Origin: Nitrosopumilus sp.
Lineage (GTDB): Archaea > Thermoproteota > Nitrososphaeria > Nitrososphaerales > Nitrosopumilaceae
Direction: 5' to 3'
DNA: 64,000 bases
Assembly: GCA_024644105.1 (NCBI GenBank)
Contig: JAHELP010000001.1
Coordinates: forward strand, 20,672 to 84,671
The position numbers and the translations under genes are program-made. The notes under the pieces are model-generated. The model was not told the DNA's origin and made no database searches. It was given only the letters and a program-made list of their open reading frames with translations. Positions 34,218 to 40,242 of the stretch are shown here, piece after piece (the stretch's first letter is position 1; each line of letters opens with the position of its first letter).

Positions 34218-35999
34218 TTGATATTTGTACAAAGTAAACAAAGAACAAAAATGACAATTTCAATTAATCTTGGTAAAAAGCTAATTTTCTTAGTATTGAT
34301 AGTATCTATTGTAACAATAACAATAACTGGTTTTCTTAGTTTCAACCATGCTGATCAAATTCTCGATAAAAGAACGGGTGAACAATTATTGGGTGAATCA
34401 AATGCAAGAGGAGAAACTTTAAGATTAATTTTTGAATCACGAATTGAGCAAAATAATATTCTTGCAAGTGATCCTATGATTAAATTATTAGTAACAGAAA
34501 TGAATCAGATTCCTGAAAATCAATTAAAAGAAATTAAAGATGAAAATAGAAGGGATTTTTTAATTCAAGTTCAGGCATTTCAAAAATTAATTGGTTTTTC
34601 TATCGGTTTTGAGGATACAAAAATTATAGGTAATAATGGAAAAGTGTTTTTTTCGTTGACTGGTATTTTAAATGAAAATTTTTCTGAAGATGAACTTTTT
34701 CAAAGAGGATTAAAAGAATCGTTTATAGAATTTGAGTCGGCAGAATCCGGTAAAAAAATGATTGTAGTATCACCAATTTTTGCTGATGATAGTAAAAAAG
34801 GAGATAAGCCAATTGGAGTAATTATTTCAAAGATGAGGACAGCATCAATTGATAATATTCTAATCGGTAAAAGTGGATTAGGAGAAACTGGTGAGGTGTA
34901 TATTGTAAATAATGAATCATTAATGTTATCTCAATCCAGATTTTTAGAGGATGTAATATTCAAGCAACAAGTGAATACTCTGGCTGTTCAGAAATGTTTG
35001 GATGAAGGAGAAGATTATTTAGGATTTTATCAAGATTATAGAAATGTTACAATTTATGGATCATCGTATTGTGCAGATGATTTAGGTATAGTACTACTTG
35101 TAGAGATGGATAAAGCAGAAGTAGAAAAACCAGTAGAAATACTTCAGGAAAGAATTTTTGAAACAGGTATTATTATTACTGTAGGAATGGTAATTGCTGC
35201 CTTTCTAATATCAAAATCTCTTTCAAGACCGCTAATCAAATTAAAAAGTGCAGCAAACAAAATTGCAAGCGGGGATTTTGGAGTAAGAACCAATATTACA
35301 ACTGGTGATGAAATCGGGGAATTATCACAAGCATTTGATTCAATGGCACAAAAATTACAAGAATCATTAATTGAGATTAAAGAAAAAGAAGAAGTAATTA
35401 AACAACAAGAAGAAATATTGTTAAAATTTTCTCAACATACTCAAAACGATTGTGTAGGTGTAATTGACATGAAAGATTCTACAAGAATTTCAAGTGAATT
35501 ATCCGATGAGAAGGTTACCAAAATGTATGAAATATTTTTGAATTTTATGGCAAAAATTGTTCGTAACCATAATGGAGAAGTTGTAAAAAATATTGGAGAT
35601 GCTTTGATGTTTAGATTTGGAAATGTTGATCCAAAAAATATTGAAGAAATGAAAAATATTTTGGAATGCTGCCTATCAATGATTGATTCTCATGATGAAT
35701 TAAAAAAACAACTTAATGCAGAAGGTATGCCTGAAATAGATTTCAAGATTAGTGCAACGTATGGATCTGTAAAAGTAGCTGAAAGTACTACTTCAAATAT
35801 TTCAGATATCTTTGGACCTACAGTCAATAAATGTTTCAAGATAAATTCACTTTGTCCAAAAAATAGTGTGGTTGTTGGCATTAATCTATATGAAATTTTG
35901 AAAGATTTAGATGAATACGAATTTACAGAATTTTCTTCTGCTGAATTGAAAGAAAAATATGGTTATAGTATTTTTGAAGTTAAAAGAAGAAAGAATTAG
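34218..35999 (+). CDS. Cache-like sensor / HAMP / class III nucleotidyl-cyclase-like signalling protein
   Basis: 593 aa. TM helix, ~290-aa extracytoplasmic domain, second TM helix, then HAMP ('SRPLIKLKSAANKIASGDFGVRTNITTGDEIGELSQAFDSMAQKL') and a coiled coil. The cyclase-homology region has 'VGVIDMKDSTRIS', 'VKNIGDALMFRFG' and 'GPTVNKCFKI'. The likely true start is ATG 34251. Confidence 0.7.
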   Translation: MIFVQSKQRTKMTISINLGKKLIFLVLIVSIVTITITGFLSFNHADQILDKRTGEQLLGESNARGETLRLIFESRIEQNNILASDPMIKLLVTEMNQIPENQLKEIKDENRRDFLIQVQAFQKLIGFSIGFEDTKIIGNNGKVFFSLTGILNENFSEDELFQRGLKESFIEFESAESGKKMIVVSPIFADDSKKGDKPIGVIISKMRTASIDNILIGKSGLGETGEVYIVNNESLMLSQSRFLEDVIFKQQVNTLAVQKCLDEGEDYLGFYQDYRNVTIYGSSYCADDLGIVLLVEMDKAEVEKPVEILQERIFETGIIITVGMVIAAFLISKSLSRPLIKLKSAANKIASGDFGVRTNITTGDEIGELSQAFDSMAQKLQESLIEIKEKEEVIKQQEEILLKFSQHTQNDCVGVIDMKDSTRISSELSDEKVTKMYEIFLNFMAKIVRNHNGEVVKNIGDALMFRFGNVDPKNIEEMKNILECCLSMIDSHDELKKQLNAEGMPEIDFKISATYGSVKVAESTTSNISDIFGPTVNKCFKINSLCPKNSVVVGINLYEILKDLDEYEFTEFSSAELKEKYGYSIFEVKRRKN

Positions 36000-36056
36000 A
36001 AAAATATTCTATAGTTTCGTATAGATATTTCAGGTATTTTGAGGCTAATTTTATTA

Positions 36057-36431
36057 TTATTGATTACTTTTTTGAGCATCAAGTTTTGCATGGATAAAAT
36101 CAATAATTTTCAAATAATCTGCTCTTGGTTCTGTACTAATTAGAAATAGTTCATTTGTATTAATTGGAATACTAATCATTGAAACTAATTCATATTCTGT
36201 TATTGATGATTTTTCAGAACCAATTTTGTATGCTAAATTTGTGTAAAGATCTCTTTTTTGTAAAGCATAATGAATTGACATGTTTATCTCATCACCAACT
36301 AACATTTTCTCAACATTTTCTTTATGTCCTCCTGCAATCAACTCTCCTTTACTATTTGCAATACCTGCAAATCTCACTTGGGAATCTAAATCAAGTACTT
36401 GTTTTGTTAATTCTTCATAATTGATTGTCAT
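36057..36431 (-). CDS. Roadblock/LC7-like small protein, translationally coupled to amt
   Basis: 124 aa. 'LDSQVRFAGIANSKGELIAGGH' resembles the Roadblock/MglB pattern. Its ATG overlaps the amt stop (ATGA at 36428-36431). Confidence 0.5.
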   Translation of the reverse strand: MTINYEELTKQVLDLDSQVRFAGIANSKGELIAGGHKENVEKMLVGDEINMSIHYALQKRDLYTNLAYKIGSEKSSITEYELVSMISIPINTNELFLISTEPRADYLKIIDFIHAKLDAQKSNQ

Positions 36432-37756
36432 TTTTCATCCTTATCAGATTTCTTTTTGAAAAGTATTTCATCTTTTTCTTCTAATCTATCAGTGTAATCA
36501 TCCATATCCAACAAGAATTCTTCTTCATCTGAGTAAGCAGATTCAGCATGTTCGCTAATGTCCAAACCTATATCTTCCACTTCAGCAGAAACTCGAATTC
36601 CGATTGTGTGTTTTAGAATTTGTAATATGATCCATGTTCCTCCAAAGCCCATCGCTGCTGCAATACCAACACCTACTGCTTGAATCCATAGTTGATCAGG
36701 ATTTCCAAATAACAAACCATCTACCCCTCCAGGATTTATTGCAGTACTTGCAAAGATTCCTATAGCTAATGCACCAACAATTCCTGCAACACCGTGGACA
36801 GAGCTAACATCAAGTGCATCATCAATCTTTAGTTTTTCTTTGAATAACACTACTCCAGAGTATGAAATAACACCAATTGCAATTCCGATAATGAAAGCAT
36901 GTTCAGCACTAACAAATCCTGATGCAGGAGTAATTCCAGCAAGACCTGCAATTGCTCCGTTAATTGTGGCTACAACAGAAGGTTTGCCAGTTCTAATCCA
37001 TGAAAGACCTGCCCAAATTAAAGCAGAAACAGATGATGCCATATGAGTTACAATTACTGTGTTACCAGCTACACCACCTGAAGCAGATAATGCACTTCCT
37101 GCGTTAAAACCAAACCAACCAAGCCATAGCAAAGAAGATCCAAGAACTGCAAGTGGAATACTATGAGGAATCATAATAGCAGGACCATAGTTACGTCGTT
37201 TTCCAAGAACTAGTGCGGCAGCAAGTGCTGCCATTCCAACACTGGTGTGAATTACGATACCACCAGCAAAGTCAACAACACCAAGATCTGATAACCAACC
37301 TCCTCCCCAAACCCAGTGAACAAGTGGATAATAGATTAGCATTGACCATGCTGCAATGAATATGATAAATGAACTGAACTTCATTCTTTCAGCAATTGTT
37401 CCAGTAAGTAAAAGTGGAGTAATTGCTGCAAACATTAATTGAAACTTAACAAACAAGACACCAGGAATTGTTGGGGCATACTGCTCTAATGGAGCATCTG
37501 ATGGAACTCCTTTAAGAAATACCCAATCAAAATTTCCAACTAATCCTGCGGTTGTTTCACCAAAGGAAATACTAAATCCAAATACAAACCACATGACACT
37601 CAAAAGTGCCAATCCAAAAAAGATTTGCATAAAAATTGATGCTGCATTCTTCTTTCTCAAAAGTCCAGATTCAAAAAGACCTAATGCAGGGATCATCAGC
37701 AATACAAGACTACCTGCTACAAGCATCCATGCTGTATCCCCAGAATCTAGAACCAT
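36428..37756 (-). CDS. amt: Ammonium transporter (Amt family) with an acidic C-terminal tail
   Basis: 442 aa with about 11 TM helices. Contains 'VDFAGGIVIHTSVGMAALA', 'WFGFNAGSA' and 'DDALDVSSVHGVAGIVGA'. The C-terminal ~60 aa is rich in D/E. Confidence 0.95.
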   Translation of the reverse strand: MVLDSGDTAWMLVAGSLVLLMIPALGLFESGLLRKKNAASIFMQIFFGLALLSVMWFVFGFSISFGETTAGLVGNFDWVFLKGVPSDAPLEQYAPTIPGVLFVKFQLMFAAITPLLLTGTIAERMKFSSFIIFIAAWSMLIYYPLVHWVWGGGWLSDLGVVDFAGGIVIHTSVGMAALAAALVLGKRRNYGPAIMIPHSIPLAVLGSSLLWLGWFGFNAGSALSASGGVAGNTVIVTHMASSVSALIWAGLSWIRTGKPSVVATINGAIAGLAGITPASGFVSAEHAFIIGIAIGVISYSGVVLFKEKLKIDDALDVSSVHGVAGIVGALAIGIFASTAINPGGVDGLLFGNPDQLWIQAVGVGIAAAMGFGGTWIILQILKHTIGIRVSAEVEDIGLDISEHAESAYSDEEEFLLDMDDYTDRLEEKDEILFKKKSDKDEK

Positions 37757-37795
37757 GATAAAAAATTGAATTTTAAACTAATAACAATGACTAAA

Positions 37796-37828
37796 TTTGA
37801 TTATCATTTGATTATCATTTGATTATCA
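37796..37828. promoter_or_regulatory. Perfect 3 x 11-bp tandem repeat TTTGATTATCA in the amt/PII divergent intergenic region
   Basis: Units at 37796-37806, 37807-37817 and 37818-37828, followed by a partial AAATCA. A TATA-like AAATTATATTTG at about 37837-37848 lies ~29 nt before the PII ATG (37871). Confidence 0.9.
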
Positions 37829-37870
37829 AAATCAGAAATTATATTTGTGTAAATTACATACAATAACTAA

Positions 37871-38200
37871 ATGCTCAAAATTGAAGTCATACTTGGAAAC
37901 AATGATGTTATGGCTATTAGTGAAGGATTAAAAAAAATTGGTATTGGGGGACTTACTGTTTCTAAAGTAAGAGGAAGAGGGAAGAAACCAGGTCCGGAAA
38001 TTCACGCATCTAAAGGAAGTGAAATTTTTGTGCCTCAATTTAGTGAAAAATACAGATTGGAAGCCATAATTTCAGATACGCAAGAAGATGAAGCAATATC
38101 AATTATTAAAAAAAATGGGAGAGTAGGTAAAATCTTTGTTTCTCAAATTTTACGGGCAGTGGATATTGCTACTGATGACGAAGGAGAATCTACAATCTAA
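37871..38200 (+). CDS. PII-family signal protein with a divergent T-loop
   Basis: 109 aa. 'KIEVIL...GLTVSKVRGRGKK...RLEAIISDTQEDEAISII...GKIFVSQI' has the PII beta-alpha-beta topology. The T-loop reads 'GRGKKPGPEIHASKGSEIFVPQF', with no Tyr at the usual modification site. Confidence 0.75.
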   Translation: MLKIEVILGNNDVMAISEGLKKIGIGGLTVSKVRGRGKKPGPEIHASKGSEIFVPQFSEKYRLEAIISDTQEDEAISIIKKNGRVGKIFVSQILRAVDIATDDEGESTI

Positions 38201-38204
38201 AGAT

Positions 38205-38342
38205 ATGAACATGAAGTTTATTCGTAAAAGTAAATTGTTTCATAGAGAAGAGATGAAACCATTAAACTCAAAAGATTTTCTTAAGGTTCTTGTAATTGCA
38301 GGAATCATTGTTATACCACTTCTTGTTGGTTTAGCTGTATGA
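38205..38342 (+). CDS. Micro-ORF encoding a single-TM peptide (45 aa)
   Basis: MNMKFIRKSKLFHREEMKPLNSKDFLKVLVIAGIIVIPLLVGLAV*. This is the ATG-initiated 3' part of track ORF 38136-38342, starting 5 nt after the PII stop. Confidence 0.3.
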   Translation: MNMKFIRKSKLFHREEMKPLNSKDFLKVLVIAGIIVIPLLVGLAV

Positions 38343-38431
38343 AAATATCTAAAATTTGGTTAACTAAGCTGGCACTTGCAATTATTGGAATGACTCTAAT
38401 TGGTTTGTATTTATTCTTACCAACTTTATAA
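38339..38431 (+). CDS. Micro-ORF encoding a single-TM peptide (30 aa)
   Basis: Hand translation: MKISKIWLTKLALAIIGMTLIGLYLFLPTL*. Its ATG overlaps the previous stop (ATGA at 38339-38342). Confidence 0.25.
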   Translation: MKISKIWLTKLALAIIGMTLIGLYLFLPTL

Positions 38432-38434
38432 TAA

Positions 38435-39016
38435 TTAATACTCACCAAAATTATTTTCATAAATAATTGTAGGATTCTTTAGTTGTTTTTCAATTGTTGG
38501 TAAGGATTTCATGATGCAATTATTTACAAAAGCACTGAAAGATTTGATTTGGTAATATTCTCGTAATGTTTCTTTATTGTTTTCATAAATAATTTGTAAT
38601 TTATTGAGAGTAAATTTTTGTAACGGAACAAATCTACTTCGTTTTGGTAATTGTCTTTTTTCTAAATTTTTATCAATTGAGATTTCAAGATCTTGCTCTC
38701 CGTCAAGTGTATCCATATCTACAACTTCCTCCATTTCAGAGACGAAAATTTTTCCTCCATGAATGGTTGATAGTCCAGAATTTTTAGAAATCATTTCAAC
38801 AAGTTTTCTAGCATCTTTATCAGAAACTACCATTTCGATTTTTGCCAATGGTACTGACTTTAAACCAGTAGAACCAACATGTGATCCTTGTGATTCATCA
38901 TAAATATGGCTATCATCTAAATTTCGTTTATCAATTATGTATGTCCCTATTTCATTCAAATTTGTTTTAATTATAGGAAAATTTTTTCGCTTAATTATAG
39001 CCTCTATTTTTTTCAC
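38435..39016 (-). CDS. PII-like domain fused to an uncharacterised ~90-aa C-terminal domain
   Basis: 193 aa. The N-terminal 'MKKIEAIIKR...KIEMVVSDKDARKLVEMISKN...GGKIFVSEMEEVV' is canonical PII framing, but the T-loop is replaced by 'DKRNLDDSHIYDESQGSHVGSTGLKSV'. I recognise no family for residues ~105-193. Confidence 0.65.
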   Translation of the reverse strand: MKKIEAIIKRKNFPIIKTNLNEIGTYIIDKRNLDDSHIYDESQGSHVGSTGLKSVPLAKIEMVVSDKDARKLVEMISKNSGLSTIHGGKIFVSEMEEVVDMDTLDGEQDLEISIDKNLEKRQLPKRSRFVPLQKFTLNKLQIIYENNKETLREYYQIKSFSAFVNNCIMKSLPTIEKQLKNPTIIYENNFGEY

Positions 39017-39090
39017 AAATAAAATTCAGAGAAAGACCCTATTTATCAGAAATGGTTATTTTCAAGGCTAGAATTGGCTTTCAAACCTAA

Positions 39091-40242
39091 TTATTTTTTA
39101 GAAAATCCAAATTTTGATGCCCAACCATGTTTTTGTTTTTTAGATGGTTTCATTGATAGATTATCCAGCATTTCATATGTTATAGTAAATCCATGGCCAA
39201 CCATGGTTGCATCTTTATTGTAATTTTCTTTGTTTGGTACAAATTCATCAGCTAAATCTTTGATTTTTTTAGTTTTTAGATCAAATAATCTAATTTTTTT
39301 ACCATTTTCAAGTTTTATTATTGCATCACCACTTAAACCCTGAATAGAAAAAGTTTCAAAGAATCGAATTGTTCCACCTTTCTTTAGTTCAATTACGGAA
39401 TCATAAGTTAATTTTCCACCATAAAATAAAATTTCTCTTGCAGATATTATTACATCATCTTCTACATTCAAAACAATAACTGAATCAGCTTCAAGTAAAA
39501 CAGTGTCTGCAAGATTTTCTGCAATAATTTTTCCATTTGGTGCTAAAATATGTGTTCGGTGTTCTTGAATTTGAAAAACTCCTACACGTACAGGATCTTC
39601 TACTCTAAATTTTCTACCATAAATATTCCCAACTACTACATTTCCATTATCAACAGTAATTTTTGCACCATTATCAATTTTATATTTATTTTCTAATGGA
39701 TTAATAAATTTGAAATCACCATTTGTTAAATGAATATCTGTTTGAAATTCTTTCGTCCAAGAAGGACTAGTTATACTACCTTGCATAATTATTGAACCAT
39801 CATAACAAAAACTTCCCGCCATGAAATTACCTTTAATAGATAATGCTCCATTAGCTTTTCTTTCTAATTCAATTTCCCCAAGAGTTTTTGAACCAAACAA
39901 TCTAGATGCAGTAGTGTTTGATATATTCAAAGCTGAAGCCCAGTCTTGAGCAATTTTCATTTCTTTAAATAATTCTTGACCTAAAATCTGATTTTTTCTT
40001 CTTACATCTGCCTCAGAATCACCTGAATATACTTTGGAATTTTTTAATTTTTCATAATCAGTCTCTGGATACTTTTTACCAATCTTTAGATCATCATAAG
40101 CTTGTTTAATTTTGATAAATTGTTCATTTTCACCTCCACGATCTGAGTGAAATTGTAGAGCTAATCGTCTAAATGCATCACGAATTTCTTTCTCTGTGGT
40201 ACCTTCAACAATTCCTAAAATATCATAATTACTTTCCACCAC
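39091..40242 (-). CDS. J-domain protein (HPD replaced by HSD) with a beta-strand-rich C-terminal domain
   Basis: 383 aa. J-domain 'YDILGIVEGTTEKEIRDAFRRLALQFHSDRGG...IKQAYDDL'. The C-terminal ~270 aa has repetitive short beta-like segments (ITVDNGNVVVGNIYG, LLEADSVIVLNVEDDVIISA). Confidence 0.7.
   Translation of the reverse strand: MVESNYDILGIVEGTTEKEIRDAFRRLALQFHSDRGGENEQFIKIKQAYDDLKIGKKYPETDYEKLKNSKVYSGDSEADVRRKNQILGQELFKEMKIAQDWASALNISNTTASRLFGSKTLGEIELERKANGALSIKGNFMAGSFCYDGSIIMQGSITSPSWTKEFQTDIHLTNGDFKFINPLENKYKIDNGAKITVDNGNVVVGNIYGRKFRVEDPVRVGVFQIQEHRTHILAPNGKIIAENLADTVLLEADSVIVLNVEDDVIISAREILFYGGKLTYDSVIELKKGGTIRFFETFSIQGLSGDAIIKLENGKKIRLFDLKTKKIKDLADEFVPNKENYNKDATMVGHGFTITYEMLDNLSMKPSKKQKHGWASKFGFSKK

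Follow-up and report, generated by a model that had tools for sequence, protein, structure and literature searches.

In a 64,000-nucleotide (nt) stretch of a Nitrosopumilus sp. contig (JAHELP010000001.1), hereafter called the window, the gene directly following the ammonium transporter gene amt encodes a protein of 124 amino acids (aa) of the family DUF6659 (Pfam PF20364). It is located at 36057-36431 on the minus strand; coordinates and strands refer to the window unless another locus is named. This gene is the last of a four-gene core consisting of PII-193, PII-109, Amt and DUF6659. We are confident that a protein with a predicted Roadblock/LC7-type fold is tightly coupled here to a PII-associated amt in a conserved four-gene module, and that the family is used as a signalling input domain. 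Our preferred interpretation, with a probability of about 0.55, is that DUF6659 is a Roadblock-fold sensor or adaptor, encoded at the end of a nitrogen module and working beside the PII proteins. A role of the protein in nitrogen signalling is proposed more tentatively, at somewhat less than even odds.

The 124-aa open reading frame (ORF) is a genuine gene and codes for a soluble protein. In a set of 5.8 billion proteins, 673 homologs were detected at E<=1e-3, and PF20364 was present in all of the 120 best-scoring ones listed. The window protein matched the DUF6659 profile over residues 4-116 with 37.1 bits (gathering cut-off 27, E 4.1e-9). The same profile was matched by 24 of 25 diverse relatives. 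For 918 pairs of Nitrosopumilus orthologs the median ratio of nonsynonymous to synonymous substitutions (dN/dS) was 0.13 with a median dS of 1.25. Purifying selection acts on the gene, the synonymous sites of these genomes being near saturation. A chance reading frame without gene function was ruled out by this ratio, by the number of homologs and by the confidence of the structural model. Where homologs were named by the sources, they were called 'hypothetical' or 'DUF6659 family protein', and the ortholog of N. ureiphilus is labelled 'Roadblock/LAMTOR2 domain-containing protein' in UniRef. No ortholog of N. maritimus was identified among the named cluster members, and no DUF6659 paralog was found elsewhere in the window.

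The fold was assigned with AlphaFold2 and Foldseek; the relationship lies below detection by HMMER. With 120 homologs as input, a model with a mean predicted local distance difference test score (pLDDT) of 90.6 and a predicted template modelling score (pTM) of 0.83 was obtained. The order of helices (H) and strands (E) in the model is alpha-beta-beta-alpha-beta-beta-beta-alpha (H5-15, E19-25, E31-36, H47-64, E76-79, E84-89, E95-100, H106-122). It agrees with the alpha1-beta1-beta2-alpha2-beta3-beta4-beta5 sandwich of the Roadblock/LC7/MglB superfamily, to which MglB adds alpha3. The segment VRFAGIANSKGELIAGGH corresponds to the beta1-beta2 hairpin (E19-25, E31-36). Foldseek yielded 111 matches at E<=1e-3 in the Protein Data Bank (PDB). 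The top 50 were all MglB, Roadblock/LC7 or LAMTOR proteins (probability 1.0, E about 1e-6), with template modelling (TM) scores of 0.6-0.72 and sequence identities of 9-16% for the top matches. Among the matches were MglB (1j3w, 3t1r, 6hjm, 6h5b), bacterial Roadblock/LC7 proteins (3kye, 3leq), Asgard Roadblock proteins (9jue, 7yh1, 7f8m) and LAMTOR/Ragulator (1veu, 6ehr, 5y3a). Thus, the Roadblock/LC7/MglB-like fold suggested in the original prediction was recovered by the model topology and by all top PDB matches, and not an unrelated fold.

At the sequence level, Pfam Robl_LC7 (PF03259) gave no match for the window protein at E<=1. Among 25 family members a single match was obtained, which was not significant (E 0.21). 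Searches of the PDB sequences with phmmer and with hmmsearch, using a 25-sequence profile, detected nothing relevant. Hence, the model places the protein among Roadblock/LC7/MglB at the fold or superfamily level only. It had also been stated that the product is not a PII. This agrees with our results, as no P-II match for the 124-aa protein was found in Pfam or NCBIfam and the predicted topology differs from the ferredoxin-like beta-alpha-beta-beta-alpha-beta fold with T-loop that characterizes PII.

The amt gene (36428-37756, minus strand) encodes 442 aa and was identified by Pfam Ammonium_transp (E 6.8e-115) and TIGR00836 (422 bits). Its TGA stop codon and the ATG start codon of the DUF6659 gene have four bases in common, giving an ATGA overlap at 36428-36431 on the minus strand (sequence context GATGAAAAATGACAATC). 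Direct reading of the sequence confirmed this overlap, which had been described before. The exact ATGA overlap is restricted to a part of the genus, namely 14 related Nitrosopumilus loci and the window. In most other amt-adjacent loci a spacer of 9-17 nt was found, and in many of these spacers GGTG precedes the ATG or TTG start. Candidatus Nitrosopelagicus and the L062 lineage likewise have a spacer between amt and DUF6659 and no overlap. The difference is made by a single codon, TCT in the window versus TAA in locus L023 and TAG in locus L009; with TCT instead of a stop, the amt of the window is six codons longer. Therefore, the ATGA overlap is probably derived. The conserved feature is the tight spacing, rather than the overlap as such.

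Two loci showed peculiarities in this region. In L001 the amt tail contains a 24-nt tandem duplication (about 1170-1241), by which the overlap with the DUF6659 gene becomes 11 nt long. In L050 the amt and PII genes were each found in two blast pieces and DUF6659 is shorter, which may reflect pseudogenes or assembly errors.

From the overlap it had been concluded that both genes are co-transcribed. This is plausible, since there is no room for a terminator at the junction and read-through from amt is likely. As a description of the expression it is incomplete, because a candidate promoter of the DUF6659 gene itself lies in the amt tail. An Rfam scan of positions 35500-39500 matched no RNA family.

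The linkage of both genes was surveyed in the Nitrosopumilaceae. With one genome per species of the Genome Taxonomy Database (GTDB), 52 loci were obtained, all of Nitrosopumilus-like archaea and 51 of them with upstream sequence. In 39 of these 51 loci an intact amt directly precedes DUF6659, at spacings between -11 and +38 nt; in 43 of them amt is no more than 2.2 kb away. The order PII-193> <PII-109 Amt> DUF6659> was also found in Nitrosopelagicus, in the L062 lineage and in the cultured N. ureiphilus. Thus, the position of homologs immediately 3' of amt, proposed as a check in the original prediction, proved to be conserved. For Nitrosopelagicus, the identity to the window proteins is 39% for DUF6659, 81% for Amt, 62% for PII-109 and 52% for PII-193; DUF6659 is the fastest-evolving gene of the cluster in this comparison. 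The spacing between amt and DUF6659 amounts to +37 to +43 nt there, depending on the start chosen. In the L062 lineage, DUF6659 is 51% identical and the spacing is +4 to +10 nt, again depending on the start.

The four-gene core moves as a unit among at least four flank contexts. In the window, Usp-DnaJ is found on one side and cyclase-cupredoxin on the other. The second context consists of a 115-aa gene labelled wHTH115, with no Pfam family above threshold, and a Na/Ca exchanger. An FAD/NAD oxidoreductase characterizes the third context, LeuA and CBS/Usp the fourth. A constant core with changing flanks and changing cyclase orientation is good evidence for a functional module. Given a dS of about 1.25, it is stronger evidence than shared ancestry alone. 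The genes amt and DUF6659 are co-oriented, tightly spaced and conserved in relatives, as an amt-linked regulator pair would be. A different order, Amt> cyclase> <PII-132 DUF6659>, was observed in L030, L049 and L051, and in a degraded form in L007. PII-132 was recognized as P-II with E 9.5e-16.

Two PII genes are present just upstream of amt in the window. PII-109 (37871-38200, plus strand), a GlnK-like protein of 109 aa, matched P-II in Pfam (E 1.2e-14) and in NCBIfam. Its gene is separated from amt by 114 base pairs (bp), is transcribed in the opposite direction and adjoins amt in nearly all related loci. PII-193 (38435-39016, minus strand) is a PII-like protein of 193 aa (Pfam P-II E 7.1e-10) and is encoded by the first gene of the core. 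For this protein, AlphaFold2 predicted a PII domain (1-95), a disordered linker (96-131) and a three-helix C-terminal domain (132-180), with a mean pLDDT of only 63.8. In some NCBI records it is called 'transcriptional regulator'. For the Amt type in question, Kellom et al. (2022; PMC9277239) described an adjacent glnK and a long C-terminal tail in ammonia-oxidising archaea. Qin et al. (2020; PMC7490402) assigned this type to the low-affinity Amt1 (Nmar_0588) and reported its loss from deep-ocean lineages; Nmar_0588 alone is listed in the supplements. The Amt of the window has an acidic, extended C-terminal tail, which is long and conserved. From this tail and the PII neighbour we infer that it belongs to the PII-associated, low-affinity Amt1/Nmar_0588 type of both studies. 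The assumption that the 124-aa protein occupies the slot of GlnK as an alternative Amt partner had to be given up, as two PII genes lie just upstream of amt and the adjacent glnK was already reported (PMC9277239). A replacement of PII at the locus was rejected as well, since the genes of PII-109 and PII-193 were found next to amt.

Loci without adjacent amt were informative for the history and the expression of the gene. PII-193, PII-109 and amt are missing, with DUF6659 intact, in L002 and L032 (DnaJ context) and in L010 and L036 (Na/Ca-exchanger context). Partial deletions were found in L022 and L046. In every locus without adjacent amt (L002, L032, L010, L036, L022, L046, L030, L049, L007, L048), the 40-75 nt before the DUF6659 start are a recognizable remnant of the amt tail, for example ..MDDYNDDLQEKDEILFKKKSNGSNK in L002 and ..DKDEILRKKK* in L010. 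The cyclase/PII-132 arrangement also retains such a remnant before DUF6659. Because the remnant persists wherever the adjacent amt is gone, the order amt>DUF6659 is read from these sequences as ancestral and the exceptions as products of at least four separate deletions or rearrangements.

The independent deletions all end just upstream of a GA(T/C)GAAATAYT stretch and spare it. In the window, the corresponding element GATGAAATACT (36462-36472, minus strand) lies in the amt tail codons (..DEIL..) and starts 38 nt before the DUF6659 ATG. The motif GA[AG][AG]T[ACT][CT]T was found at -38/-39 in 39 of 55 loci. The loci with the element include the amt-less L002, L032, L010, L036, L022, L030, L049 and L007, where it lies between -37 and -40 in remnants that are no longer coding. 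In an unrelated DUF6659 paralog, TTTATAT precedes the ATG by about 30 nt. The GAAATAYT element is a candidate for a TATA-like promoter inside the amt tail codons. The DUF6659 gene probably has its own promoter in addition to read-through.

The wider family gives hints on the function of the domain. Only 193 proteins were found at E<=1e-3 among 1.84 billion cluster representatives, and genomes of ammonia-oxidising archaea hold several DUF6659 paralogs at other sites. DUF6659 is the sole N-terminal (input) domain of the soluble HisKA-HATPase kinases P0203, P0227, P0264 and P0265. In TIR/NACHT/caspase-pentapeptide proteins (P0171, P0206, P0224, P0237, P0253, P0255) it stands at the C-terminal end. 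Such domain combinations suggest a sensor or adaptor module and not an enzyme. The TIR/NACHT/caspase-pentapeptide-repeat proteins resemble defence or STAND NTPase architectures. Some paralogs carry lysine-rich tails. On a short metagenomic contig (L063, 462-3947), four DUF6659 paralogs were found within 3.5 kb, a local expansion of the family. The closest representative beyond the Nitrosopumilus group (P0123) was discarded as a further case of linkage, being linked to SHMT and not to amt, with no amt remnant upstream.

Comparable use of a Roadblock-type domain is known from other systems. Galperin et al. (2018; PMC5847659) described the Roadblock-related domain NitrOD3 of about 120 aa in Thaumarchaeota, which occurs stand-alone in multiple copies and fused to two-component modules. 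DUF6659 also occurs both stand-alone and in HisKA-HATPase fusions; the two families are likened by description only. NitrOD3 differs in being fused to receiver domains in Nitrososphaera, and a linkage to amt was not reported. In the conservons of Streptomyces, the Roadblock/LC7 protein CvnB and a histidine kinase cooperate within one signalling module (PMC4316618). A small GTPase and a DUF742 protein also belong to the conservons; neither of them was seen at the DUF6659 locus.

We propose that DUF6659 would be expressed together with amt by read-through and probably also from the TATA-like element in the amt tail codons. The protein may serve in the cytoplasm as a platform for sensing or as an adaptor. 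It is probably a dimer, by analogy with Roadblock proteins, which form homo- or heterodimers via the edge of the beta-sheet and helix alpha2. It would bind a partner or ligand of the nitrogen-status pathway, for which the PII proteins, the cytoplasmic face or tail of Amt, or a downstream signalling protein come into consideration. It would act alongside PII rather than close the Amt pore as a stand-in for GlnK. Since the gene survives the loss of the transporter and of both PII genes, its role may extend beyond this Amt.

Several observations weigh against this interpretation. In L002, L032, L010 and L036, the dN/dS of DUF6659 is 0.08-0.12, an equal constraint after the loss of PII-PII-Amt. 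The gene is kept under constraint there and is therefore not dependent on this Amt; a role specific to it is not required. Close paralogs adjoin the genes of ribosomal S24e/S27ae, purL and SHMT. A neighbour-joining tree gave hardly any support for a single clade of all amt-linked genes (bootstrap 0.5-18.5%), and the orthology between genera is based on synteny; the Nitrosopumilus-type clade obtained 96.5% support. Transcript or proteome data tied to the DUF6659 gene were not found in the literature, and we found no paper on DUF6659 or on a link between Roadblock proteins and amt.

The S24e/S27ae-linked paralog (L057, L058, L059, L061, L064, L065) has 117-127 aa and directly follows both ribosomal genes. 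It was found in Nitrosopumilus sp. K4, on a groundwater contig with a protein clustering with Nitrosarchaeum, and on three further contigs. With about 50% identity, it is closer to the window protein than the amt-linked copy of Nitrosopelagicus.

Alternatively, DUF6659 could be a passenger gene, whose function would be unrelated to ammonium or nitrogen and which would use the transcription of amt or a chance promoter in its tail. The gene is retained and constrained in amt-less loci, the candidate promoter is retained in all of them, paralogs occur in housekeeping contexts, and the protein evolves fastest within the cluster. Against a passenger stands the persistence of the adjacency at saturated synonymous divergence, in at least three lineages and four flank contexts. 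Moreover, the alternative arrangement again places DUF6659 beside a PII gene, that of PII-132. We consider the passenger explanation unlikely.

A sensor or adaptor might also be part of a signalling arm in which Amt is both transporter and receptor. A DUF6659 dimer would then dock on the conserved acidic tail or the cytoplasmic face of Amt, or on PII partners, and relay ammonium flux or nitrogen status to further signalling proteins, for example the neighbouring Cache-HAMP cyclase or histidine kinases of the DUF6659 type. This proposal appears rather improbable to us. If true, it would be a GTPase-free archaeal parallel to Ragulator beside a nutrient transporter, and a new layer of ammonium sensing in organisms for which ammonia is both fuel and nitrogen source. 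Ragulator-Rag is known to report on the nutrient status next to a transporter in the membrane. The Roadblock fold is common to LAMTOR/Ragulator, the Asgard Roadblock proteins and the model of DUF6659, and the parallel is meant as an analogy only. Unlike LAMTOR/Ragulator, DUF6659 is a separate sequence family with no Rag/Arf-type GTPase nearby, and membrane docking is not indicated.

In the classic amtB-glnK operon, glnK lies immediately 3' of amt. DUF6659 resembles GlnK in being a small cytoplasmic protein whose gene directly follows amt and is tightly coupled to it. It could therefore be asked whether the Roadblock protein blocks or gates the Amt trimer directly when nitrogen is sufficient. 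The tight, conserved coupling would suit such a GlnK substitute, and the long, conserved, acidic C-terminal tail of Amt could serve as docking site. Unlike GlnK, however, DUF6659 belongs to another family with a predicted Roadblock and not PII fold, and its gene outlasts the loss of amt. The known Roadblock proteins are dimers, GlnK is a trimer with T-loops entering the Amt pores. The same conserved cluster already contains two PII genes, in line with the adjacent glnK of this Amt type (PMC9277239). A substitution of GlnK is very doubtful.

As the least likely explanation, hardly to be expected from our data, DUF6659 could be an MglB-type regulator, i.e. a GTPase-activating or scaffold partner of a Ras-like small GTPase encoded elsewhere. 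MglB of Thermus thermophilus and Myxococcus xanthus and other prokaryotic Roadblock/LC7 proteins share with the model the fold and the order of helices and strands, including the third, C-terminal helix, and have a similar size (about 120-135 aa). MglB/Roadblock proteins that pair with small GTPases gave the best structural matches, and 328 of 749 prokaryotic MglB homologs are 'orphans' with no GTPase gene next to them (PMC4316618). DUF6659 differs from MglB in its low identity of 9-16%, the missing significant Robl_LC7 match and the lack of a coupled MglA-type GTPase gene; its neighbours are transporter and PII genes. No small GTPase was found within 5-7 kb in the annotated amt-linked loci (L053-56, L062, L066). 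A P-loop together with the NKxD motif was found in no ORF of the window, and its only small P-loop protein is AAA_17 kinase-like. Therefore, the defining partner of the MglB type, an MglA/Ras-like small GTPase encoded within about four genes, is absent there. Instead, the domain is combined with histidine kinases and STAND NTPases.

A major step of the nitrogen cycle in the sea is controlled by ammonia-oxidising archaea, which have to split ammonia between energy and assimilation. Besides Amt transporters, they possess many PII paralogs. The family DUF6659 and the Roadblock label of the N. ureiphilus ortholog were already in databases, and the adjacent glnK of this Amt type was already in the literature (PMC9277239). 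In contrast to these, we did not find described the conserved pairing of amt with a Roadblock protein, the four-gene core, the persistence of DUF6659 with an amt-tail remnant after the loss of amt, and the kinase fusions. The module, with the possible regulator PII-193, a GlnK-like PII, Amt and a Roadblock protein, together with an operator-like palindrome, provides concrete candidates for a regulatory circuit. It offers a starting point for the study of ammonium sensing in a group of biogeochemical importance. By structural modelling, a fold and a likely sensor or adaptor role can be assigned to the Pfam family DUF6659, which is expanded in these archaea. The locus is further a case of a protein with predicted Roadblock fold tied to an Amt/PII module with no GTPase partner nearby. 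If the linkage is merely positional, a useful annotation remains, namely the Roadblock fold of DUF6659 and the presence of a GlnK at the locus.

The palindrome lies in the divergent control region between amt and PII-109 (37757-37870). This region of roughly 115 bp is kept in 46 loci, most of which contain a 17-bp palindrome CAAATGAT-A-ATCATTTG. The window shows it as three direct 11-bp repeats GATAATCAAAT at 37795-37827; in L015 the repeat occurs about 11 times in tandem. The palindrome or repeat looks like an operator-like element for some regulator, and PII-193 is a candidate for its binding.

A Cache-HAMP-class III nucleotide cyclase (34218-35999, plus strand; Pfam dCache_1, HAMP, Guanylate_cyc) is encoded convergently with DUF6659 in the window. 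It is a variable neighbour outside the core. In relatives it is found downstream in either orientation, between amt and DUF6659, or is absent. Comparison of the window with L012, L030, L049 and L051 showed it convergent or co-directional downstream of DUF6659, or right after amt and followed by PII-132. By eye, the cyclase of the window has both metal-binding Asp motifs (IDMKD, IGDALM), and Asn..Lys where Asn..Arg is usual.

In Nitrosopelagicus (L053-L056, 585-1966), an SbtA-type bicarbonate transporter with its own SbtB-like PII gene is encoded just upstream of the amt module. Hence, two transporter-PII pairs adjoin each other in these genomes.

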